64,000 bases of DNA from Thainema sp. (GTDB lineage Bacteria > Cyanobacteriota > Cyanobacteriia > Phormidesmidales > Phormidesmidaceae): assembly GCA_052168235.1 (NCBI GenBank), contig JBQLZK010000004.1, forward strand, positions 32,001 through 96,000. Reading direction: 5' to 3'. The notes beneath the pieces were generated by a model. That model saw only the letters and a program-made list of their open reading frames with translations, did no database searches and was not told the DNA's origin. The position numbers were made by a program, and so were the translations under genes. This document shows, piece after piece, positions 1 through 37,501 of the stretch; the first letter of the stretch is position 1; every line of letters starts with the position of its first letter.

Positions 1-264
1 ACCGCGATCGCGCTCTCTGCACCTACTAGTAAAGCTGACGATGACGGGCGTATAGATGGAATGGCGCTACCTCAGCTATCGCCGTCGTTTACAGAAACAG
101 CAGTCAGTAGGATTGAGAACTTGGATACAACATTGGGTACAACAACTCAGCCGTGTATGAGTCTGATGACTAGAGCGGTTTCACAATTTCTTTCTGGAAG
201 TACTAGACCATCAGTGCTGTAATAAAAGCGATCGCATGATCAAACGTTTTAGGAGGTAAACAGG

Positions 265-741
265 ATGCAGTCGATGCCAATTGATATTGGAATTAAGGAA
301 CAGGATCGGCGCGAGATTGCCGAAGGGCTTTCCAAACTGCTCGCCGATACATATACCCTGTATCTCAAAACTCACAACTTCCACTGGAACGTGACTGGGC
401 CGATGTTCCAGACGTTGCACCTCATGTTTGAGCAGCAGTATAACGAGCTGGCTTTAGCGGTGGATCTGATTGCTGAACGGATCAGGGCTCTGGGCTTTCC
501 GGCTCCTGGAACGTATCAACAGTTTGCCCAGCTCTCATCCATCGACGAAGAGGAGGGTGTCCCAAACGCAGAGGACATGATCCGCAAGCTGGTGGAAGGT
601 CAGGAAGCGGTCGTCCGCACGGCCCGTTCAATCTTTCCAGTGGTGGAGCGATCGAGCGATGAACCTACGGCGGATTTGCTCACCCAACGGATGCAAGTTC
701 ACGAAAAAACAGCCTGGATGCTGAGAAGCTTACTGGGCTAG
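265..741 (+). CDS. dps: Dps family DNA starvation/stationary phase protection protein
   Basis: Dps signatures [32 protein letters not shown] and [17 protein letters not shown] upstream. Confidence 0.95.
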
Positions 742-761
742 TGGCACACGATTACATGATT

Positions 762-817
762 GCGATCGCACTTTCTATTCCTATCTTCATACTTGAATAT
801 TGGGAAAGTGCGATCGC
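762..817. repeat. HIP1-bounded ~50 bp repeat unit (copy 1)
   Basis: GCGATCGCACTTTC...GAAAGTGCGATCGC 14-bp inverted termini; the interior resembles the units at 1518-1623. Confidence 0.8.
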
Positions 818-838
818 ACCATACAAGCTCCACAATCA

Positions 839-1462
839 TCATTTACCAGCACTCAAAATTTGTTCAGCCGTTAGCTTCAATCCTGGAAAAGTTGACGAGT
901 CGATAGTTTGATTGCCTCGCAGCTGCTGAATTTCGTACTCTCCATCGACCAGCGTACAGATAGAAAGAGTGGGCTGTTTGGGTTTACCAATGTATCGAGT
1001 TCCGCCCAATCCTGCGTAGTCTGCAATCCAATATTCGGGGATACCTAAAGCTGCATAGTCTTCAACTTTACGAGCATAGTCGTTTTGCCAGTTGCTGCTA
1101 ACAACTTCGGCGATAAATTTAATCGAACTGCCTAGAGTCAGGATCGATTGGTCAGGCCAGAGCGGTTCTTGGGGCAATTCACCTTGGTCAATAACTGCAA
1201 CATCAGGTCGAAATGCAGTCATACCGATGTTAGAAGGGCGCAACAATCCGCGTTGCAGCACAAACCAAGGTGAACCTGTGCTGTCGATTTGGACGCAAAG
1301 CTTGCGAGTGATGAAGGCGGCCACTTCCTCATGCTGACCCGTTGGTTCCAAGTCAAACACCTCTCCATCAATCAGCTCATAGCGCTTATCCCCACCATAA
1401 CGGTTGAGGAACTGATCAAAGTCGAGCGACTGTTGTATTGGCTGGTTGAACGCAATAGTCAT
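839..1462 (-). CDS. Uma2 (DUF820) family PD-(D/E)XK endonuclease
   Basis: RYELIDGE, RPDVAVID, IAEVVSSN, DYARKVEDYAALGIPEYWIAD; ATG 1462 preferred over the 1480 ORF start. Confidence 0.92.
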   Translation of the reverse strand: MTIAFNQPIQQSLDFDQFLNRYGGDKRYELIDGEVFDLEPTGQHEEVAAFITRKLCVQIDSTGSPWFVLQRGLLRPSNIGMTAFRPDVAVIDQGELPQEPLWPDQSILTLGSSIKFIAEVVSSNWQNDYARKVEDYAALGIPEYWIADYAGLGGTRYIGKPKQPTLSICTLVDGEYEIQQLRGNQTIDSSTFPGLKLTAEQILSAGK

Positions 1463-1517
1463 AGGCCAACTTTGTCCCATCGGTGCCTTCAGTCTACTCT
1501 AGAAAAATTTAGAATTT

Positions 1518-1623
1518 GCGATCGCACTTCTATTCCCACCTTCTATTTGAATCTTGGGAAAGTGCGATCGCACCTTACTACTCCTACCCACCTTCTATTT
1601 GAGCTTTGGAAAAGTGCGATCGG
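1518..1623. repeat. Two tandem HIP1-bounded repeat units (copies 2 and 3)
   Basis: HIP1 at 1518 and 1564 and a variant GCGATCGG at 1616; shared interior CCCACCTTCTATTTGA..TTGG.AAAGT. Confidence 0.8.
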
Positions 1624-1708
1624 ACTAACGGTGAAGTTGTGCGGCGGCAGACAGGCTTGAACTCTCACCGATAACCTTTGTGCCGTCCGCACCAACGAAG
1701 TGTTAGGC
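1623..1708 (-). other. attC: Integron attC recombination site (86 bp)
   Basis: Minus strand reads R'' GCCTAAC, 5-nt spacer ACTTC, L'' GTTGGTGC ... L' GCACAAC, 6-nt spacer TTCACC, R' GTTAGTC. L'' has one extra base relative to L'. The Rieske gene stop TAA lies within R''. Confidence 0.88.
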
Positions 1709-2674
1709 TGCTAATGAATGGTTCCAGTTTTTGTAAAGTTCTTCTGCGTAGAACATAATCTCTTCATTTGGCAGATGAAGCTTAGCTTTTTGCCTTGGGT
1801 ATAAACTTTCAAGGCAATCCGCATCTTGTTGAACCACAATCGAAGCTGCATTGAGTAGAGAATCCTGCATGATTGGTTTTAATTCAGGATTGCTAAATTT
1901 TGCATAGAGCAGGATGAAAGTCTTAGTCGTATCCTCTGTCTCTGGATAAAGAATATGTCCTTGATACGTTTTGACATCAGGAGAATTCAAGCAAAAGAAC
2001 TGAGTTGATGGAAAAACATATTCAAGGAAATTTTCCATCACTTCCGGAATTGCTCCTAGCATCGGATTGGCTTCAATCTCTTCTGCTGTGTAGTCATCTT
2101 TCTCAGCTACCTGAGAAACTTTAGCGTAAATACCATCTTTTTCAAGAAATGTAGATCGAGTGGATTTGACCTTGAAAAACTCTCTGTGAGTACCATTTTG
2201 ATGATCGTGATCATAATTGATCATCAGGCTACTCAAGAAGCTATTTTGAATACTTCTCAGAGCAGTCACTCCCAAAAATTCATATTCAGATGCAACTTTC
2301 CTATGTAACTCGGGAATAGGTAGCCGAGGATCAAACCCACCATAAGTCCAAATGAAGTCACCATCAACAATCAACTCTAATGGTTCGGCTAGCGGTACAC
2401 GGCTTAACCCACAATCTCGCAACAAATGCCCTGACCCATCGAATTCCACAGCATGAAACGGGCAGGTGATCGAATTACGCTCCTCACAAATCCATCCATT
2501 GGACAACGGAGCTTGCATATGTGGACAAATATTGTTAAGAGCAAAAACCTCTCCAGCGGCATTCTGCCAAAGGACGTAATCTTGACCATTCAGCGTGATT
2601 TTATATGGTTTGTTGACCTCCAGCATAGACTTATGGGCTATGAGCCAAGGCGCACCGGGAAGAATGGGAAGCAT
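1703..2674 (-). CDS. Rieske [2Fe-2S] non-heme iron oxygenase (ring-hydroxylating/VanA-like alpha subunit)
   Basis: CPH...CPFH Rieske ligands; NYDHDHQNGTH mononuclear iron motif; distal QQDA aspartate. Confidence 0.9.
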   Translation of the reverse strand: MLPILPGAPWLIAHKSMLEVNKPYKITLNGQDYVLWQNAAGEVFALNNICPHMQAPLSNGWICEERNSITCPFHAVEFDGSGHLLRDCGLSRVPLAEPLELIVDGDFIWTYGGFDPRLPIPELHRKVASEYEFLGVTALRSIQNSFLSSLMINYDHDHQNGTHREFFKVKSTRSTFLEKDGIYAKVSQVAEKDDYTAEEIEANPMLGAIPEVMENFLEYVFPSTQFFCLNSPDVKTYQGHILYPETEDTTKTFILLYAKFSNPELKPIMQDSLLNAASIVVQQDADCLESLYPRQKAKLHLPNEEIMFYAEELYKNWNHSLAA

Positions 2675-2690
2675 AACGTATCGAACCTCT

Positions 2691-2732
2691 AATTAAACAC
2701 TTGTTTAGTTAATTAAACGGATGTTTAATTAA
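2691..2732. promoter_or_regulatory. Tandem palindromic operators, probable TetR binding sites
   Basis: AATTAAACACTTGTTTAGTT directly followed by AATTAAACGGATGTTTAATT (TAAAC-N4-GTTTA twice, 20-bp period) between the divergent genes. Confidence 0.75.
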
Positions 2733-2807
2733 TCTGTCAAGTATCTCTGATGGAAAACCAGGGGGTAGGCTGGATACAGTCGTCTGTTTGCTGGATCAAC
2801 CTAGGTC

Positions 2808-3449
2808 ATGCCCAAATTGTCTAACTCTGCTGCCAAAAAGGAAAAGCAAAGCCGTAATCCGGAAGTCACAAAGGCTAATATTCTGTCGGCTGCGATTGAA
2901 GAATTTGCACAGTACGGTTTGTCTGGCGCACGGACAGAGGCGATCGCATCTCGTAGCGGCGTCACAAAAGCAATGCTTTGTTACTACTTTAAAAACAAGG
3001 AAACCCTTTACCGATCGGTTTTACAGCAGCTTGTTGACGACATTAACAACGCCTTTCAAAACATTGATTGGGAAAAGCTGTCTGCCGATCAGGCGCTAGA
3101 GGCAGTTGTCCGAAACTATATCGGATTTGAGGTCAGCAATCGCTGGCATGGAATGCTATGGTTCCAGGAAGCTATTCAGAACCAAGGTCGCTATGGTGCA
3201 GAGACAGGATGGCAAGCGGGTTTTCAAACGATTGTAGAAATCTTGGAACGAGGAATCGCTGAGAAAAAATTCCGCCAGGTTGATCCGTTTCTAACAGCAA
3301 TTAATATTTTGGGTATCTGCTCGTTTTACTTCGATGCCCATGAAAACCTGAAATACCTTGACTCTAATAAAGACCTTCTAAGTTCTGACATGGTCAAGCA
3401 GCAAACAGAAACGGCTGTCGAGTTTATTCTTGCAGGTATAGCGGCTTAA
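2808..3449 (+). CDS. TetR/AcrR family transcriptional regulator
   Basis: N-terminal HTH ILSAAIEEFAQYGLSGARTEAIASRSGVTKAMLCYYFKNKETLY. Confidence 0.95.
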   Translation: MPKLSNSAAKKEKQSRNPEVTKANILSAAIEEFAQYGLSGARTEAIASRSGVTKAMLCYYFKNKETLYRSVLQQLVDDINNAFQNIDWEKLSADQALEAVVRNYIGFEVSNRWHGMLWFQEAIQNQGRYGAETGWQAGFQTIVEILERGIAEKKFRQVDPFLTAINILGICSFYFDAHENLKYLDSNKDLLSSDMVKQQTETAVEFILAGIAA

Positions 3450-3468
3450 ACGCATACCTGCTTAAGCC

Positions 3469-3574
3469 GCCTAACTATTAATTAGACGGAAATAGTCTAC
3501 TTAAACCGCCAAATTGGGTGTTTAGGTAGAAATCTGTCAGCCTAAACATACCAATTGCGGTGTTTAGGTGGAAA
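3469..3574 (-). other. attI-like site with accessory repeats
   Basis: Minus strand GTCTAAT-TAATA-GTTAGGC has the L box/5-nt spacer/R box geometry of attI1. Upstream are direct repeats GGTGTTTAGGT(A/G)GAAA at 3517-3532 and 3559-3574 (plus strand). Confidence 0.55.
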
Positions 3575-3692
3575 CGTTCAGTATAACCACCCTACGATTT
3601 GGAATTGTGGCACGGATACAAGGATGACCACCAAACTGTTTTGGATTGTATAGGTCCTTTCGAGTAGTTTTAACTTTTTATAAAGCATCAAA

Positions 3693-3731
3693 CATCACTT
3701 ACCAGCACTCAAAACTTGTTCAGCCGTTAGC
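3693..3731 (-). pseudogene. Remnant of a Uma2 gene 3' end
   Basis: 37/39 identical to 837-875, the end of the first Uma2 gene; encodes LTAEQVLSAGK*. Confidence 0.8.
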
Positions 3732-3732
3732 C

Positions 3733-3801
3733 GGACAGATTTATGACCGATTAGTGGCGCATTTTGGACATGATGCCATTTTTAAGGATGTGGATGACAT
3801 T
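3733..3801 (+). pseudogene. Fragment of a TIR-domain gene
   Basis: Translates as GQIYDRLVAHFGHDAIFKDVDDI, resembling the bacterial TIR_2 segment (GRIYDRL..HFG...IFKDVD.I); no start codon and no rest of the domain. Confidence 0.65.
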
Positions 3802-3826
3802 CTAAATTGCACATCACGTCAGTAAG

Positions 3827-4408
3827 CTATCCTTGCAAAATCTGCTCAGCAATCAACTGCAAGGCTGAAAACATGGGTGGCTCGATCACCTCTGTGCCTG
3901 AATACTCTGCTGCCTCATACCACCCTTCCAACAGCATACACACCGTTACCCTCTCCTTCAGCGGGTCAACGATCCAATACTCTGGAATATCCAGCACGCT
4001 ATACTCTGCCCGCTTGGCCCGATAGTCCGTACTCTTCGTAGACTCGCTCACCACCTCCACCACCAGTAACGGTGGCGGCTCGTTCAGACGAATGACCGCT
4101 TCCCGGTTTTGCAATGTCTCCCATTGCGCCAACGTTAGCACCGTCACATCCGGAATCCGCACTGTATCCCAGGCTTCACCCCGAGGCGATTGCAGCCCAA
4201 CTGTTCCCGCCAGCGCAATCCACGGCTGCCGCAGACGCTCAATCTCATCATCCAAAATACGCTCCAAACGCTTGATGATGGCTCCGTGACGACCAGTCCC
4301 TAAACTCATCGGCAGCAGATCCCCATTCAGCAACTCATAGCGAACATCACTGCCATCGTCATAGGCCAGATATTCCTCTAGAGTTAAGCGCTGAGTGGCG
4401 ATCGACAT
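3827..4408 (-). CDS. Uma2 family endonuclease
   Basis: LTLEEYLAYDDGSDVRYELLNG, RIPDVTVL, LVVEVVSES, DYRAKRAEYSVLDIPEYWIVDP. Confidence 0.95.
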   Translation of the reverse strand: MSIATQRLTLEEYLAYDDGSDVRYELLNGDLLPMSLGTGRHGAIIKRLERILDDEIERLRQPWIALAGTVGLQSPRGEAWDTVRIPDVTVLTLAQWETLQNREAVIRLNEPPPLLVVEVVSESTKSTDYRAKRAEYSVLDIPEYWIVDPLKERVTVCMLLEGWYEAAEYSGTEVIEPPMFSALQLIAEQILQG

Positions 4409-4478
4409 AGCTAGGTCGTTGCAACAGTAAGGTCTTACCCAAATCGCAAAATGTAGTGGATAACGCCTGCTTAACGGG

Positions 4479-5024
4479 TTAAGCGGCGGAATCGTGGTGA
4501 TTAGGGGGTTGGTCGATGAGCAGCGCGTCTAGATCCGGTGGGGGAATGATTAGCGTGACGGCGGGTTGTTCGGTCGCGGGTTGATGATTTTCCTGAGAGG
4601 GTTCGACCACGACATCAAGAACCGTCGTTGATGAATCGGGTTGTTCTGTCATTGCTGCCGCCGCGTCTGAATCTGTCGGTTTTGCAGGTGCGGGTTCAGC
4701 CGATGCCGTTTCAACCGCCTCTACCGGACTCACAGGGCACTCTTCCACAGGCACGGCCTCAGTGGAACTCTCTTCTGCGACACTCACATCATCAGCCGCT
4801 TCAGCAGATTCAGCATCCTCATCGATCCAGGGCGAATCGAAATGGTGCCAAGGCAAAATTGGACTATTAGGTAACTCACTGGATAAAACCGTGATGTTCT
4901 CCTTATCGGGTTCAGGAATACAAAGACCATCCTGAGCCGAACATCCATTTTGGGACATTTCAGTAATCGGAGGATTCATAACGGAGACCAACGCGACAGG
5001 CGATGTGCAGGATTTGCCAACCAT
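4479..5024 (-). CDS. Hypothetical acidic/Pro-rich protein
   Basis: Starts immediately after the stop of the upstream gene; short motif PILPWHHFDSPW followed by a low-complexity tail; start uncertain. Confidence 0.6.
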   Translation of the reverse strand: MVGKSCTSPVALVSVMNPPITEMSQNGCSAQDGLCIPEPDKENITVLSSELPNSPILPWHHFDSPWIDEDAESAEAADDVSVAEESSTEAVPVEECPVSPVEAVETASAEPAPAKPTDSDAAAAMTEQPDSSTTVLDVVVEPSQENHQPATEQPAVTLIIPPPDLDALLIDQPPNHHDSAA

Positions 5025-5666
5025 TTAGACGAAATAGGTCGCCAAAATGTGCGTTAACAGAATACCTGCGATCGCAAGGGTATTGTAGGCAGCATACTTG
5101 AGTGTTTGAGAGACATCATCCACTCGCTGCTTGTTCGCATTATATATCTCAGTCAAATTGGCTAGCATCTGTAATTGATACTGATCCGGCGTCAGCACCA
5201 GATAGCGCTCCAAAAATTTGCGGTCTTCTAGGTTGGGACTCACCGCCACTTGACGAGGTAAATAAGCCCGCACCAACAGGACGAAACTCACCGCAAATCC
5301 AGTAATTTCGGCCAAGCTGAAGATACTCGGATGAAAGATCAGCTGCGAGATGGTCAAACTGGTCAGCAACGCACCATTGGTCACAAACAGAATGTTAAGT
5401 TTTGTCGTCAAAACCTGACTTTGCTCCCGCTGCTCCTCCAGCACCCGCCGCACATCCTGCGCCGCATAGTCGAGCGTCAGCGCAATCAGGGCTGGTTGGG
5501 CTGGCGGAGTCGGCTGAGGCGACAGTTCAGCTTGAGCCGTTGGAGGCGATGGCTCAGATGGTGCTTGAGGAGAAGATTTTGTCGATTGAGCCGATTGATT
5601 CGGTTGAGTGGAATAGGCAGATGAATCGAATTGAGCAGCTTGGGTCGAAAGTTCAGAGTCAGTCAC
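5025..5666 (-). CDS. Hypothetical membrane protein (about 3 TM helices)
   Basis: 213-aa ORF with a disordered N-terminus and three hydrophobic segments. Confidence 0.75.
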   Translation of the reverse strand: MTDSELSTQAAQFDSSAYSTQPNQSAQSTKSSPQAPSEPSPPTAQAELSPQPTPPAQPALIALTLDYAAQDVRRVLEEQREQSQVLTTKLNILFVTNGALLTSLTISQLIFHPSIFSLAEITGFAVSFVLLVRAYLPRQVAVSPNLEDRKFLERYLVLTPDQYQLQMLANLTEIYNANKQRVDDVSQTLKYAAYNTLAIAGILLTHILATYFV

Positions 5667-5726
5667 GTTTGCGATCGCAGATGGCAGGTGGCATTCAGGC
5701 AGCAGATTACAGTTTCTAAAACCATA

Positions 5727-6110
5727 CTAATCAGTTACATCGGCTTCTGCATGGGTTTCTTGCTGCGAATGCAACACAACTCCACGTTCCGACACAGACC
5801 ATTCCGGTCGCCACTGATACTCACTCAGTTTAATTTTATTTTTCTGGTTGAATTTGACCCCTTCTTGCTCCAATAACTCCTGCTGAAGATAGTCCGAACC
5901 TTCCCGAAACGGCGAGTGCGATACTTCTCCCTTCGCATTAATCACCCGATGCCAGGGAACCTCATCTTTTTCCACAACGCGATACAGCGCATAGCCCACC
6001 AGCCGCGCCTGCCCCGGCATGTTCGCCAACTCAGCAATTTGCCCATAGGTTGCCACCTGGCCCACCGGAATTTGCCGCACAATTTTGTAAATCTGCTCGT
6101 AAGCTGTCAT
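5727..6110 (-). CDS. MGMT family alkyltransferase-like (ATL) protein
   Basis: IPVGQVATYGQIA...ARLVG and PWHRV (Trp instead of the catalytic Cys of PCHRV). Confidence 0.92.
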   Translation of the reverse strand: MTAYEQIYKIVRQIPVGQVATYGQIAELANMPGQARLVGYALYRVVEKDEVPWHRVINAKGEVSHSPFREGSDYLQQELLEQEGVKFNQKNKIKLSEYQWRPEWSVSERGVVLHSQQETHAEADVTD

Positions 6111-7104: not shown

Positions 7105-7371
7105 AATTCACCTCTTCTTTTCCTAATGGCAATACGGGTTGATGACTGTTTCTGATTACAGAAATTCTGATTACAGAAATAACTACAGATCAGGCACTCT
7201 GATTCCGCTCCAGTCCGATGAAGACTGGATAAATTTTGGCTTAATTTAAGTGTTCCCAAAGAGTGCTGAACTGGAGGACTAGCAGTAGGAATGAAGTGCG
7301 ATCGCGGCTTTCCTCGCTTGCTTGATTTCATCCTATGAAAATGCCTCAGCACAATCAAACGATGGCATCAA

Positions 7372-8695: not shown

Positions 8696-9591
8696 TAATA
8701 ATCTGCCGAACGACGTAGTTTTAACAGCTACCGCTTGTAACGTTATAGCGAGTACAGCGTCCAGTTTAGCGAGTGCAATGATCGGTCTGAATAGAATCTC
8801 TCAAATTACGCTGCGCCATTAGCTCGTCTCTACGAATACTGCACTAATACTGCCAGGCAAGGCTTTCGTACAAGTCAGAATCAGTCCATTCTCAAAATCC
8901 GCAGAAAATAAAATGCTTAATGTTTTTTTAGCTATTTTTGTGTTTTTTAATACAATTGCTTGATTGAAATCTGTAGGGTCGATCCCCGGTGAGTAAGGAC
9001 ATTGATTTTTTGAGAGAGAACGTAATTTTAAGATGATTTTTGGGCCAAAGATGTATGAAATCTCGATGAGAAAAACCAAAGAAAATATATTTTTTCTCCG
9101 AACTTAAACGCCTATCTGAGCAGCCAAGCTGTAACGGATGCAGTATTGTGGGTGTTTCGGGGATCATTCCTTGGTGGGCGATCCCCAGTTTTATATCTGG
9201 GGTATTATTGCAATCTAGAGATGCCCTTGACATAATGAGGAGAGTTTCTAGTTACTCAAGTTTTATAAACTCAAACGAGTTCAATTCTTCTTAACTGTTG
9301 TTTACTTTATTGACTGACTCGACGATCGCAATTCAGCACATAAACAGTTTGGTTTTATGTAACAACTATTTAACAATTGCCCCATTGTTGCGATCGCTAC
9401 CAGTTAGATCTCAGTTGAATTGCTGCCAATTTGTGGTTTGAAGGAGTAGCCCGTAGAGTTGCTTTGAGGCAAATGCTGATTGAAACCAGTCCTATTTGAC
9501 GACAAAGCTTAATCTCTATTTCACGTTTAGGCGTTTAAGCAGCAATCTTAAAACTTCAGTGGCTTGCACGATTAAAAAAGGCTTTTAGGTT

Positions 9592-9792
9592 ATGAAAATG
9601 ATTCAGCAGACGGATTTAGTCCAGATCATTCACTGCCCCAACTGTGGTAGTCGTGCTGAGCGGGAGCATATCAGTGAGCGCAATGTTGTCCAGACTGAGT
9701 GCCCCTCTTGTGACTATTTCATGGTGATCCATGCTGAGACGGCTCAAGTTGTGGAAGCTTACGCACCCGGTCTTCCAGCCATGTTCCGCTAG
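9592..9792 (+). CDS. Small cyanobacterial Zn-ribbon protein
   Basis: CPNCG...CPSCDY and a C-terminal VVEAYAPG motif. Confidence 0.8.
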   Translation: MKMIQQTDLVQIIHCPNCGSRAEREHISERNVVQTECPSCDYFMVIHAETAQVVEAYAPGLPAMFR

Positions 9793-9802
9793 TGTTGTTA
9801 CT

Positions 9803-9851
9803 CAAAACCTAGAGGGGGCTACCGCGTCGCGGTAGCCCCCTCTAGGTTTTG
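9803..9851. repeat. Perfect 24-bp inverted repeat between convergent genes (possible bidirectional terminator)
   Basis: CAAAACCTAGAGGGGGCTACCGCG-T-CGCGGTAGCCCCCTCTAGGTTTTG. Confidence 0.9.
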
Positions 9852-9859
9852 TACGAAGC

Positions 9860-11554
9860 TTAAGCCTGCTGCTGTTTGACCAGCAGGGGAGCGGCCTGGA
9901 GCAGCACTTGGGTATAGGGATGCTGGGGCTGGGTGAAAAGCTGCTGGGTGGGGCCAATTTCGACGATTTTGCCCTGGTTCATCACCGCAATGCGATCGCA
10001 CAAGAAGCGAGCCACCCACAGGTCATGAGTAATAAATAAGTAGGTCAAATCCAGTTCCCGCTTCAGTTCCAGCATTAGCTCCAGCACCTGAGCCTGGACG
10101 CTGGCATCGAGCATACTGACGGGTTCATCGCAGATTAGCAGCTTGGGACGAGTGATCAGGGCGCGTGCGATCGCAACTCGCTGCTGCTGGCCGCCAGAGA
10201 GGTCGCTGGGGAAATAATCGTAGTACCGCTCTGCCGGAGTGAGGCCGACGCGCTCCAGCATATCCAGCACCTGCTGACGGGCTTTTGAGGAGTCGGCTAA
10301 ACCGTGAATCAGCAGCGGATCGGCAATGCTCTGGCCGACGGTCATGGTCGGATTGAGGCAGGCGTGGGGGTCTTGAAACACCATCTGCATGTGGCGGCGC
10401 TGTTTGCGTACCTGCGACTTGGGCAAATGGGTTAGATCTTCGCCCAGAAACTCGACGCTGCCTCCGGTCGGTTCAATCAGCCGTAAAATCGTGCGGGACA
10501 GGGTAGATTTGCCGCAGCCGGATTCGCCCACCAGTCCCAAAATTTCGCCAGCATACAGCTCCAGCGTCACGCCATCTACGGCTGGAATGGTTTGATTCGG
10601 CTGCTTAGAGAAAATGCGGGCCAGGACGTTGGGTTCAATTACATAATGCTTTTGCAAGTCGCTCAGCTTGAGCAGCGGTGCCTTATCTGGAACCGAATCC
10701 AGTGGCGTCTGGCGATTTTCGGCGGAGGTTTGCAGATGAAACGCTGCATTGAGCAGAGATTTCGTGTACTCATGCTGCGGATTGGCCAGAATGTCGGCTG
10801 TATTGTGCAGTTCCACCAGTTCGCCCTTGTACATGACCGCAATGCGATCGCAATATTCCCCCACCAGCGCCAGATCGTGGGAAATCAGCATCAGCGCCAT
10901 GCCCCGCTCTTCGCACAGGCGGGTCAGCTCTTGCAGAATTTGGGCGGAAACCGTGACATCCAAACTAGTCGTCGGCTCATCGGCCACGATCAGCTTGGGG
11001 TTGAGCAACAGCGCGAGTGCGATCGCAACTCGCTGCCGCATACCGCCACTGAATTCGTGGGGATACTGGTTCCAGCGATCTGCCGGAATATTGACCGCTG
11101 CCAGGGTGGAAATGGCGACTTCTTTGGCTTGCGATCGCGACAGTTTCGGCTGGTGAGCGCGCAGGGTTTCAATACAGTGCTCACCAATCGTCATCAGCGG
11201 ATCGAGCCGGGTCATCGGGTCTTGAAAGACCAGCGCCACGGCTTCACCACGAAAGTGGCGCAGTTCGGCCTCGTTTAAATCCAGGACTGACTTCCCCTCG
11301 AAGGTGACGCGACCTTCAACTTGGCTGGACGGCGGCAGCAGGCGCATGACGGCGCGACCCAGCGTGGACTTGCCGCAGCCGGATTCGCCCACTAAGCCCA
11401 GCTTCTCGCCCGGACGCAGCCTAAACGAGACATCGTCAACCGCCCATTCAATCGCTGCATCAGCCGCATCGCTGGTGCGACTGCCCGCACGGCTGGGGTA
11501 GGCGACCCGCAAATGCTCAATACAGAATAGGTCGTCGCTCATCGGCTTATCCAT
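9860..11554 (-). CDS. Dipeptide/oligopeptide ABC transporter ATP-binding protein (fused double ATPase)
   Basis: Two GESGCGKST Walker A motifs, FSGGMRQR and LSGGQQQR signatures, PQHPYT. Confidence 0.95.
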
Positions 11555-12434: not shown

Positions 12435-13718
12435 ATGACGCAACTCGACACCTGGCGTAATTTGGCGGCTGGCACCCTCGATTCTCTGATTCGCCGCATT
12501 AATAGTTCAACCTTTACGGTCGAAGATGGCCTGGTTGATAACCTGCTGCGTATTCTAGCTGGGCAGCCGCCCCGTCCGTTGAATCGTGACCCATACGTGG
12601 GCCTGTTCGGCGCTGGGTCAGTGGCTAATCTCCGCAGCCGCGCCGCCAGTGGAGTGCGCGTTTATCTAGAGCAGCTCGATGCGCTAAATTTGGTCAAGGC
12701 TGATGAGGAAGCAGATCGGCTGATTCGGGAACTGAGGAATTTTCCCACTGAGCGTCCTACGGGCGTACTGCCCTATGAATCCCTGTTTGGCTATACCGAT
12801 ACCAACATCAGCGAGTCCCAAATTGAGCTGTGGCGACGCCAGGCCGCTAATCGCCTCCAGTCGCTGATTGCCGATATTGCCAGTTCGACTCCGGTGGAAA
12901 CCGATTTCTTGGCCGATTCGCTGCTGCGCGCCTTGAGTAGCCAACCCGCCCGGCCGGCTGATCGCGATCCGTATCGGGGACTAATTTTGCTGCCCGAAAG
13001 CACGCCGTTTCGGGAATATCGTCTACGAGCCGCAGATGCATTGAAAATCTACATCGATAGCATTGATGAACCTAAACTCGGTTCCAAGGATGCGGTAATT
13101 GACGATGTGATTCGCAAAGTAACGCCCAATCCACTGCCCAGTCGTCCGATTAACCGTCTCCCCTACGAAGGTTTATTTCCCACCGCGACAGGCATTACCG
13201 CTGCTCAACTGCGGCAGATTGCGCCCGAGGCACCCGCCGATGTCGAGAAGTTCATCTCGCCGATTAACGTCACAATTGCAGAGTTTGATATCAATACTCC
13301 CCTCCGTCAGGCGCATTTTTTAGCTCAGATTGCCCACGAATCCGGAGGTTTTCGCTTTGTGGAAGAACTGGCTAGCGGCGATCAGTATGAAGGACGGCTC
13401 GACTTGGGCAATACGCAACCGGGTGATGGTCGCCGCTTCAAAGGCCGGGGGCTAATCCAAATTACCGGACGCAGCAACTACACCGCCTGTAGCTTAGGGT
13501 TAGGCTTAAACAATGCGCTGATCAATCAGCCGGACTTGCTGGAGCGCAGTGATTTGGCGGCTCGCAGCGCAGGCTGGTACTGGAATTCTCGCGGTATCAA
13601 TCGCTTCGCCGATCGCGATGATCTCAATGCCGTTACCCGTGCCATCAATGGTGGGTTGACCAACATTGAGGATCGGGCGCTGCGATTGAGTCGGGCAAAG
13701 CGATTGCTCGGAATCTAG
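12435..13718 (+). CDS. Glycoside hydrolase family 19 (chitinase/endolysin-like) with N-terminal repeat domain
   Basis: AHFLAQIAHESGG, FKGRGLIQITGRSNY, SAGWYW, VTRAINGG. Confidence 0.9.
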   Translation: MTQLDTWRNLAAGTLDSLIRRINSSTFTVEDGLVDNLLRILAGQPPRPLNRDPYVGLFGAGSVANLRSRAASGVRVYLEQLDALNLVKADEEADRLIRELRNFPTERPTGVLPYESLFGYTDTNISESQIELWRRQAANRLQSLIADIASSTPVETDFLADSLLRALSSQPARPADRDPYRGLILLPESTPFREYRLRAADALKIYIDSIDEPKLGSKDAVIDDVIRKVTPNPLPSRPINRLPYEGLFPTATGITAAQLRQIAPEAPADVEKFISPINVTIAEFDINTPLRQAHFLAQIAHESGGFRFVEELASGDQYEGRLDLGNTQPGDGRRFKGRGLIQITGRSNYTACSLGLGLNNALINQPDLLERSDLAARSAGWYWNSRGINRFADRDDLNAVTRAINGGLTNIEDRALRLSRAKRLLGI

Positions 13719-27117: not shown

Positions 27118-28194
27118 ATGATCATGAAAAAGCGTTTAATTGTCTGCTGCGATGGCACCTGGCAAGACCTCGGTAACTCCACCCTCACCAACGTCGCTAA
27201 ATTTGCTCAAGCGATCGCATCGATTGGCCAAGATGGTACTCCTCAAATTGTCTTCTACGACGAAGGTATTGGCACAGAACTGACCAGCAATATTCTGAGC
27301 GGTGGTGCCTTTGGTCGCGGCATTGACTATCACATTCAAGAAGCCTATGGCTTTCTGGCCCTGAACTACAATCCGGGCGATGAAATTTATCTGCTGGGAT
27401 TTAGCCGGGGTGCCTATACCGTGCGGAGCTTAGCCGGATTCATCTACAATTCTGGGCTTTTGAAGCGAGAACGGATTAATCAAATCACCGAGGCGTACGA
27501 AAATTATCGCGATCGCACTTTACATCCCGATCAATCCCCTGAGCTAGTCAAGTTCCGCCGCGATAACGGTGAACGAGTACCCGTTAAGTTCCTCGGCTGC
27601 TGGGATACTGTTGGTTCACTCGGTCTGCCTAATCTAATGCCGTTTTTGCCAATTCGTGAGTCATTCAATCAGCGCTATGCGTTTCATGACCATAAGCTGA
27701 GCGATATTATTGAACATGCCCGACATGCGATCGCAATTGATGAACCGCGTCAGTCGCTCAGCGTCACACCGATGGAGCAGGGCGAAGCGGTAAAGCAGAC
27801 GCAAACGCTGAAGCAGGTCTGGTTCCCTGGCGATCACGGCTGCGTCGGTGGCGGGACGCCCGAATATCGGGGATTTTCCGATGCGGCTTTAGAGTGGATG
27901 ATGCAGCAGGCCAGTGAACTGGGTTTGGCTCTCAAACCGGAATACATCGCCGATGGTATTCAGCCCGATCATGCGATCGCGTTTACGCCCCACTCACCCT
28001 TGCCCTGGATGCTGCTGGGCGGATATAAGCCTCGGCAGCTCAACCCAGAGCGTGGCGATCACCTGCACCCGATTACGATTCAACGCTGGCAAGAACTAAA
28101 TAATTATCGTCCGCATAATCTGCTGCACGCTTTTGGAACGTTATTAAACAACCAGTTCTGTTCTCCGTCCTGTTCAACGGTAGTACAAGCTTAG
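27118..28194 (+). CDS. DUF2235 alpha/beta hydrolase (Tle1-like)
   Basis: KRLIVCCDGTW, GFSRGAYTVR, GCWDTVGS, HAIAIDE, VWFPGDHGCVGGG. Confidence 0.93.
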   Translation: MIMKKRLIVCCDGTWQDLGNSTLTNVAKFAQAIASIGQDGTPQIVFYDEGIGTELTSNILSGGAFGRGIDYHIQEAYGFLALNYNPGDEIYLLGFSRGAYTVRSLAGFIYNSGLLKRERINQITEAYENYRDRTLHPDQSPELVKFRRDNGERVPVKFLGCWDTVGSLGLPNLMPFLPIRESFNQRYAFHDHKLSDIIEHARHAIAIDEPRQSLSVTPMEQGEAVKQTQTLKQVWFPGDHGCVGGGTPEYRGFSDAALEWMMQQASELGLALKPEYIADGIQPDHAIAFTPHSPLPWMLLGGYKPRQLNPERGDHLHPITIQRWQELNNYRPHNLLHAFGTLLNNQFCSPSCSTVVQA

Positions 28195-36931: not shown

Positions 36932-37501
36932 TTAGTATTCCGCTGCCAGAATTTGAGCGGCAGTTAGCGCAAAGTTCGAAAATAACAGCGATTCTACAAC
37001 TTGATCACCCTGGTAAATTTTCTCCTCGTAAAGGCCATCAATCCAGTTCAAACCCGTTACTTTTTGAGCCTTTGGATCGACAATCCAGTATTCGCTAATA
37101 TGACGACCCGCATATTCTGTCCGCTTGTAGCGATAGTCACGGTTTTCCTGTTTAGGGCTAACGACTTCGACAACAAGCGCTGGGGGCGGCATATCGTGAG
37201 TGATTAGCCGTTGCGTTGCATCTTTTAATGCCTCTGCTGCTTCGTCAGAAAGCACGGTCAAATCAGGTTGCCGAGCTGTCGCTAGCTTACCGCTAACCGC
37301 GATTTGAATTTTCATGCTCAAATGCGTGTAGGAAACGCCAAGTTGAAGGAAATAGGCATACAGGAAAGAGGCGATGCGATCGTGAAGGTCGCTCTCGGGC
37401 GGCATGGCAATTAGCTCTCCCTCAACTAGTTCGTAGCGGGTATCAGTACCATCGTCAAAGTTAAGATAATCTTGCAGGGTCATGGGTGTTGCGATCGCCA
37501 C
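36932..37501 (-). CDS. Uma2 family endonuclease
   Basis: RYELVEGELIAMPPES, RQPDLTVL, LVVEVVSP, DYRYKRTEYA, EYWIVDP. Confidence 0.95.
   Translation of the reverse strand: MAIATPMTLQDYLNFDDGTDTRYELVEGELIAMPPESDLHDRIASFLYAYFLQLGVSYTHLSMKIQIAVSGKLATARQPDLTVLSDEAAEALKDATQRLITHDMPPPALVVEVVSPKQENRDYRYKRTEYAGRHISEYWIVDPKAQKVTGLNWIDGLYEEKIYQGDQVVESLLFSNFALTAAQILAAEY

Follow-up and report, generated by a model that had tools for sequence, protein, structure and literature searches.

How does a gene cassette come to lie in a cyanobacterial chromosome between an attI-like site and an attC, with no integrase gene beside it? The question was raised by a stretch of 64,000 nt from Thainema sp. (contig JBQLZK010000004.1, positions 32,001-96,000; hereafter the window, in whose positions all coordinates are given), for which an earlier note had described an attI-like simple site, a segment of 1846 bp carrying a tetR gene and a Rieske oxygenase gene, and a terminal attC. 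All of these sequence features, including the length of the segment, were present. Read 5′ to 3′ on the minus strand, the locus runs from inverted boxes and the simple site through the antisense tetR, a control region and the Rieske gene to the attC. The reading preferred here, at a probability of roughly 0.7, is that of a cyanobacterial integron remnant, in which a genuine attI and a single attC-ended cassette have been kept and the integrase gene has gone; the earlier note had named such a remnant of a deleted intI locus as an outcome contrary to its own proposal.

For comparison, stretches fetched from other genomes were numbered L001 onward. Eighty of them are Rieske loci from species-representative genomes, and the others include plasmid loci, among them Kovacikia minuta CCNUW1 plasmids pB (L081, NZ_CP083584.1) and pA (L085) and plasmids of Synechocystis PCC 7338 and PCC 6714 (L082 and L083, respectively).

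The attC, the attI region and their junction

The R′′ box of the attC (GCCTAAC, 1708..1702, minus strand), within which the Rieske gene ends on its stop codon TAA, is followed by a 5-nt spacer (ACTTC), the L′′ box (GTTGGTGC, with one extra G compared with L′), the L′ box (GCACAAC), a 6-nt spacer (TTCACC) and the R′ box (GTTAGTC, 1629..1623), the sixth base of which departs from GTTRRRY in the part derived from neighbouring DNA. The geometry of a cassette 3′ end, namely an R′′ of the form RYYYAAC, an extra base in L′′, spacers of unequal length and an R′ starting with GTT, is present in full. Twenty of the 21 designated pairs were formed, the lone mismatch falling in the neighbour-derived part of R′, and pairing was complete (21/21) when this part was replaced by the cassette's own 5′ start. 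The plus strand of the attC folded at -19.1 kcal/mol (z = -2.43), compared with z = -1.22 for the top-strand fold of 1615-1716. A strict scan (RYYYAAC; a 5-nt spacer; an L′′ of 8 nt, longer by one extra base than the 7-nt L′; a 6-nt spacer; and GTTNNNN complementary to R′′ at at least 6 of 7 positions), which was designed on the textbook consensus after the site had been seen, gave a single match in the window (1623..1708), none in 300 first-order Markov simulations and none in 1,438,129 bases of the 80 other cyanobacterial loci.

The decisive evidence came from homologs. By blastn against plasmids, sequences of 83-93% identity over 72-82 nt were obtained in five records (Kovacikia minuta pA and pB, and Synechocystis PCC 7338, 7339 and 6714), and because one of them, 91.5% identical over 82 nt, closes cassette 1 of a complete integron on Kovacikia pB, the site at 1708..1623 is judged to be a canonical and genuine attC, as the earlier note had held. 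A decayed copy of the same family, 82-85% identical, was found in L001 (UBA2566). In an alignment of seven copies, conservation spans R′′ to GTT(A/G) and ends abruptly thereafter, as a crossover at G|TT would lead one to expect. A covariance model built from the family, with the window copy included, scored 109 bits at the window attC and recovered attCs outside its training set (three on Kovacikia pB, two on pA and one in L087); elsewhere in the window it gave one weak match (12500-12595, E=0.045), which lies inside a coding sequence and was taken as noise. The pair counts of the two Synechocystis copies (bottom versus top strand, 19 versus 16 in PCC 7338 and 17 versus 15 in PCC 6714) give a small hint of selection on the bottom strand.

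The attI region contains direct repeats of the form TTTCYRYCTAA, which start at 3574, 3532 and 3492 on the minus strand and are the only three in the window. A profile was constructed with nhmmer from four plasmid sequences (Kovacikia pB, Kovacikia pA and two tandem copies from Nostoc commune plasmid8), the window being left out, and was searched against the window and 87 loci (1.6 Mb). Its match at 3579..3468 (E=1.1e-12, 47.4 bits) covers positions 4-112 of the 112 in the model, and among the 80 Rieske loci there was no match at E<1. Aligned pairwise, the region is identical with Kovacikia pB (L081 3901-4034) in 97 of 131 columns and with Kovacikia pA in 85 of 109. The relationship was visible solely by profile and pairwise alignment; a search of plasmids by blastn with the window attI returned just two spurious 23-nt Enterococcus matches. 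Weak blastn matches (E=0.1) in Nostoc commune and Leptolyngbya BL0902, at first thought spurious as well, were kept for their repeat architecture and profile score.

The DNA that separates intI from cassette 1 on Kovacikia pB ends in ...TTCTGTCTATTAATTG|TTAGCT, with repeated boxes ahead of this end, and the simple site of the window aligns there with GTCTATTAATTG|TTAGCT, about 220 bp from the start of intI. This integrase of 320 aa scores 468 bits with TIGR02249 (cut-off 265) and, compared along its whole length, shares 49.8% identity with IntI1. The two loci share the attC family, the architecture and crossover of the attI, a first cassette of two genes, and a cassette start complementary to R′′. 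They differ in that the pB homolog stands directly beside intI and is followed by at least five attCs (the cassette-1 site, one found by eye at about 7262-7360 and three found by the model), whereas the window has a single attC and no intI. The region at 3469..3599 thus appears to be the homolog of a true attI, a label that is based on its position and on the logic of the junction; the profile match and the neighbour of intI on pB bear out the attI-like site of the earlier note.

At the junction, which has the form G|TT and lies downstream of paired inverted boxes, the crossover was placed between G 3475 and T 3474 (minus strand), and from T 3474 to G 1629 there are 1846 bp. What fixes its position is the hexamer behind the attI G: TTAGGC is exactly complementary to GCCTAA, with which R′′ begins, and circularisation of the cassette would accordingly restore the attC. 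The same match was found in three loci with three different hexamers (TTAGGC/GCCTAAC in the window, TTAGCT/AGCTAAC on pB and TTATGC/GCATAAC on pA), which is the footprint of attI x attC insertion by IntI; the junction signature claimed in the earlier note is therefore not a peculiarity of one sequence. The cassette 5′ start (TTAGGCGGCTTAAGCAGGT) resembles that of the first Kovacikia pB cassette, and the tetR stop codon lies about 25 nt inside this boundary. Insertion at G|TT predicts that an empty site in relatives would read ...TAATAG directly followed by TTAGTCCGATCGC.

The attI1 of class 1 integrons has a terminal inverted pair of 7-bp boxes, a G|TT crossover and, further upstream, integrase-binding repeats. 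The window site has likewise terminal inverted boxes, the same crossover and preceding repeated boxes; it appears to differ in having no sequence similarity to attI1 and more and longer repeat units (period about 41 bp).

Table 1. Features of the cassette locus and its immediate flanks
Feature	Position	Strand	Description
attI region	3469..3599	-	About 130 bp of alternating inverted boxes (YCTAAW / WTTAGR), with the simple site at the end
attI simple site	3487..3469	-	GTCTAAT-TAATA-G|TTAGGC; read directly from the sequence
Integron cassette	3474..1629	-	1846 bp, two genes; limits set by the attI crossover and the G of R′
tetR	2808..3449	+	213 aa; Pfam TetR_N (E=5.8e-13) and TetR_C_29
Divergent control region	2675..2807		133 bp; two palindromic operators (2690-2731) and a promoter-like match
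Rieske [2Fe-2S] oxygenase gene	2674..1703	-	323 aa; Pfam Rieske (E=1.3e-18)
attC	1708..1623	-	86 nt; R′′-5 nt-L′′...L′-6 nt-R′; bottom strand is the window plus strand
HIP1-bearing tandem repeats	1489..1625		Units of about 50 bp; adjoin R′; flanking DNA outside the cassette
Uma2 3′-end scrap	3689..3731	-	43 nt; 93% identical to 833-875

Absence of the integrase gene and its possible explanations

None of the 52 open reading frames (ORFs) of at least 110 aa in the window matched Phage_integrase at E<=1e-5, and tblastn with the Kovacikia IntI gave no match at E<=10 in the 64 kb, in agreement with the earlier statement that no tyrosine recombinase occurs there. The definition of a complete integron (an IntI-specific domain and at least one attC) accordingly does not describe the window. 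The start of intI on Kovacikia pB lies about 95 bp past the last attI box common to both loci; the corresponding stretch of the window is occupied by unrelated DNA and the Uma2 scrap, with another Uma2 gene after it. The 230 bp upstream of 3599 aligned with the 5′ end of the pB intI with a score of 26 (shuffle mean 26.7; 265 of 500 shuffles as high), and an echo of the intI start noticed by eye (ATG ACC ACC) was dropped, the alignment being no better than shuffles.

The scrap matches the 3′ end (833-875) of the intact Uma2 gene at 839-1480, and related HIP1 repeat units follow both. The repeat family of the tandem array beside R′, D1, has four copies, one of them (781-819) behind the same intact gene. 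With the Uma2 scrap on one side and the repeats on the other, the block of attI and cassette therefore sits in rearranged, repeat-rich DNA. A clean insertion of the block into a Uma2 3′ flank and repeat unit was considered and rejected: the left half fits (3731..3689 versus 875..833), the boundaries are ambiguous, and for the right half the second repeat unit (1584..1516) was a better match than the unit adjoining R′. The window holds three intact genes for Uma2 (DUF820, endonuclease-like) in all, at 839-1480, 3827-4408 and 36935-37501.

In the preferred reading, a circular TetR/Rieske cassette would have been inserted at the attI by IntI, and rearrangement would later have removed intI together with about 100 bp beside it, either in the present genome or prior to arrival of the block; we infer this loss from the absence of the gene. 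Recombination among Uma2 paralogs may have removed it. Today the locus would be an ordinary self-regulated operon, in which TetR would bind two operators overlapping the Rieske promoter and the oxygenase would be induced by a small-molecule ligand. With a TetR-controlled promoter of its own, the cassette would be independent of an integron promoter, and its excision or replacement would be possible only with IntI supplied from elsewhere in the genome.

Several observations weigh against this account. No fragment of intI marks a deletion, and arrival of the block already without an integrase, or a stand-alone site never linked to one, fits equally well. Just one of the five replicon sites of the attI family, that on Kovacikia pB, adjoins an intI. 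Covariation in the attC stem was not significant, its level being reached by 56 of 500 shuffles in an alignment of seven closely related sequences. Many loci carry the TetR/Rieske pair with no attC, which leaves its conversion to a cassette unexplained, and the arguments for import of the cassette given below (base composition and best matches) are indirect.

The alternative that survives best, which we nevertheless regard as unlikely, is the one proposed in the earlier note, a distributed integron in which a functional, integrase-less attI, perhaps one of several, would be served in trans by a distant IntI. At three of the four other replicon sites of the attI family, the flanks retrieved (8-10 kb to each side) contained no IntI: on Kovacikia pA an attI is accompanied by two cassettes, of which the first holds three genes, and 10 kb in both directions are free of IntI; Nostoc commune plasmid8 carries a tandem pair of attI copies and lacks an attC; and Leptolyngbya BL0902 has partial attI repeats, an ATPase gene and an attC. 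Kovacikia, with an IntI on pB and on pA an integrase-less array whose attI is 79.5% identical to that of pB, has the configuration proposed, and IntI genes of the Kovacikia clade are annotated in many cyanobacterial genera. The full-length match of the window attI to the profile and the near-perfect pairing of its attC would also suit a working platform; such intact-looking sites are equally expected in a recent remnant, and recurrent integrase-less attI sites fit repeated loss of the integrase as well as they fit action in trans. In the window, moreover, there is a single attI homolog and a single credible attC. That attC clusters without an integrase may be acted on in trans is already accepted as possible, and the novelty would lie in the retention of the attI.

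A broader and comparably doubtful proposal is that cyanobacterial integrons are modular, with integrase-less attI platforms loaded in trans, and that the present cassette shows how new cassettes arise. Four such platforms could then be counted, in the window and on Kovacikia pA, Nostoc commune plasmid8 and Leptolyngbya BL0902, and the cassette may have been made when a complete, self-regulated module of two genes acquired an attC. The mechanism of cassette creation is described as unknown in the relevant part of Cury et al. (2016, PMC4889954).

Insertion of the cassette at a non-specific secondary site of the genome (attG), beside a sequence resembling attI by coincidence, would be in keeping with the abundance of such single cassettes (3400 in 21,105 genomes, according to the part of the Loot et al. 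preprint concerned). Sites of IntI1 need little beyond GWT, and a GTT is present at the junction. The target would then be unrelated to att sites apart from GWT, and here about 110 bp upstream of the junction match the attI profile (E=1.1e-12), with the same box architecture and crossover as beside intI on Kovacikia pB; the reconstructed target reads CCGA against CRGM at positions 6-9, a motif defined for IntI1 in E. coli. Since the cassette sits in an attI homolog, origin by loss of intI is the more likely, and we consider attG insertion highly improbable.

Hardly any weight is left for the reading without an integron element, in which the hairpin would be a terminator or a small cyanobacterial repeat (like a miniature inverted-repeat transposable element or a repetitive extragenic palindrome) behind a resident operon: the pair is indeed a conserved cyanobacterial module, the top-strand fold is unremarkable and other small repeats abound in the region, but homologs of the hairpin stand at the cassette ends of a complete integron, one and the same element has invaded two of them on Kovacikia pA (with group II intron matches in the L085 copy), and the hairpin has no long terminal inverted repeats, target duplications, T run after the stem or Rfam family (a search of window positions 1-6000 gave just two sub-threshold matches, to eukaryotic RNAs).

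The TetR/Rieske cassette and its relatives

The tetR gene is divergent from the Rieske gene and antisense to the direction of the cassette. Toward the Rieske gene, on the minus strand, a promoter-like match (TTGACA at 2740..2735, 17 nt, TTTAAT at 2717..2712) is overlapped by the operators; it is a consensus match only and is missing from the list of a generic promoter scan, and generic scans for promoters and terminators did not exceed shuffles. The operators (2690-2731) consist of an inverted repeat, I10, and a direct repeat, D10, and operator-like words are conserved in L001, L002, L003, L006 and L007. Their half-sites (TAAAC / GTTTA, 4-nt spacing) resemble the attI boxes of the window at 3500-3568 (CTAAAC / GTTTAG, 13-14-nt spacing); this likeness is absent from the Kovacikia attI boxes and is probably a coincidence.

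The cassette looks imported because its GC content is low relative to the window (43.2% versus 51.2%, with 1.9% of 1846-bp windows as low) and because the best relatives of its Rieske protein differ from those of the triosephosphate isomerase (TIM) of the window. The cassette lies in a low-GC tract of about 1650-3850, and the GC content at third codon positions of the Rieske gene is 37.5%, against 50-68% for housekeeping genes. The closest relatives of the Rieske protein are 87% and 84% identical, the best named ones being from Roseofilum (84%) and Nostocales (about 60%); for TIM, Nostocales and Leptolyngbya give about 83%, and further relatives 95-96%.

Homologs of the Rieske protein numbered 640 at E<=0.001, and those with names were nearly all cyanobacterial. 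The best relative of solved structure is the oxygenase of dicamba O-demethylase, DdmC, with E=6.9e-9 across the Rieske domain alone. The 80 Rieske loci are mostly from Nostocales, with others from Baaleninema, Acaryochloris and UBA2566, and the divergent TetR/Rieske pair was present in 74 of them. No attC was found by blastn beside the Rieske gene in any of the 80, the one copy in L001 lying elsewhere in its locus, and none was seen in 21 Rieske downstream regions that were read. Relics of attC behind Rieske orthologs were likewise rejected, since none of 11 loci beat shuffles and the covariance model gave no match in six loci.

The pair was also found on pREC2, a conjugative plasmid of Acaryochloris marina (L088 3336-7339), beside a transposase of the Tn3 family, and because of this setting we regard it as an accessory, mobile-prone module. 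On pREC2 it adjoins a convergent 2Fe-2S ferredoxin gene, whose product could be the electron donor of the oxygenase. A tyrosine recombinase of this locus is 25.6% identical to IntI over 180 aa and is probably not an IntI. The end of the pREC2 Rieske gene, GCAGCCTAG, is close to that of the window, GCAGCCTAAC, and no attC was detectable at pREC2; a relic noticed there by eye was unsupported, leaving a shared GCAGCCTA at the gene end.

In the closest relative in the genome collection, L001 (UBA2566), the control region between TetR and Rieske is split at 9134-9920 by an insert of about 780 bp, which contains the decayed attC-family copy (9636-9724) just upstream of a truncated FtrA/GbdR-like ORF (DJ-1 domain) and is flanked by two diverged copies (about 85% identical) of a promoter/operator segment of about 52 bp. 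A second lineage therefore shows integron debris in contact with this gene pair, at another position and in the opposite orientation.

Relation to described integrons and minor observations

A single attC lacking an integron integrase (SALIN) is defined, in the part of the Loot et al. preprint concerned, as a single attC with a coding sequence and no integrase or other attC nearby. On the attC covariance model and the Pfam and tblastn searches, rather than IntegronFinder, the window agrees with this definition, having one cassette, one attC and no integrase nearby, and the earlier view that the locus differs from such elements cannot be maintained in that form. The difference is that the cassette stands in the homolog of a true attI, not at a minimal GWT genomic site. 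A cluster of attCs without an integron integrase (CALIN) contains two or more attCs, and the single attC of the window places it outside this class. The likeness is that CALINs too are integrase-less integron material, thought to derive partly from loss of the integrase; in the passages of Cury et al. (2016, PMC4889954) concerned, 95% of CALINs are without a recognisable intI pseudogene, as is the window, attI is described as unknown outside classes 1-3, and surveys of CALINs and SALINs leave it unscored. A full-text literature search returned, among the texts it covered, no paper devoted to a cyanobacterial attI and no data on its binding or recombination.

What is new here is modest: a recognisable attI family, the retention of an attI without integrase, and a self-regulated cassette of two genes, of which an example is now documented. 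With an attI family defined by sequence, SALINs and CALINs that have retained a docking site could be told apart from stray cassettes. As the same genes occur in many genomes without an attC, the TetR/Rieske pair offers a natural case in which to study the origin of cassettes, and comparison with these attC-less orthologs, which are 81-87% identical to the window's, would mark where the joins were made. If integrase-less attI sites do act in trans, counts of integron platforms per genome will need revising.

The attC comparisons gave some further observations. On the two Synechocystis plasmids (L082 and L083, about 4100-6090), a shared block of three genes (dihydrofolate reductase family, GNAT and ASCH) ends in an attC-family copy; no match to the attI profile and no IntI were found in the fetched flanks, and the blocks look like multi-gene SALINs common to both plasmids. 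On Kovacikia pA (L085 12500-13230), an ORF-less group II intron lies in an attC at or near R′′, on the strand opposite to the cassettes, and was scored by Rfam as group-II-D1D4-3 (128.8 bits), Intron_gpII (42.3 bits) and group-II-D1D4-1 (37.5 bits). In L084 (about 9900-10000), a second attC is adjoined by the same intron sequence. One class of group II introns targets attC sites, and the L085 intron presumably belongs with it by its likeness.

The window as a whole is cyanobacterial chromosome, with 97 copies of the HIP1 palindrome (GCGATCGC) and housekeeping genes including those for TIM, polyphosphate kinase, HtpG and superoxide dismutase. In a housekeeping stretch, an ORF at 27118-28191 was found to encode a phospholipase catalytic domain like that of Tle1 of type VI secretion systems (Pfam E=2.4e-82).

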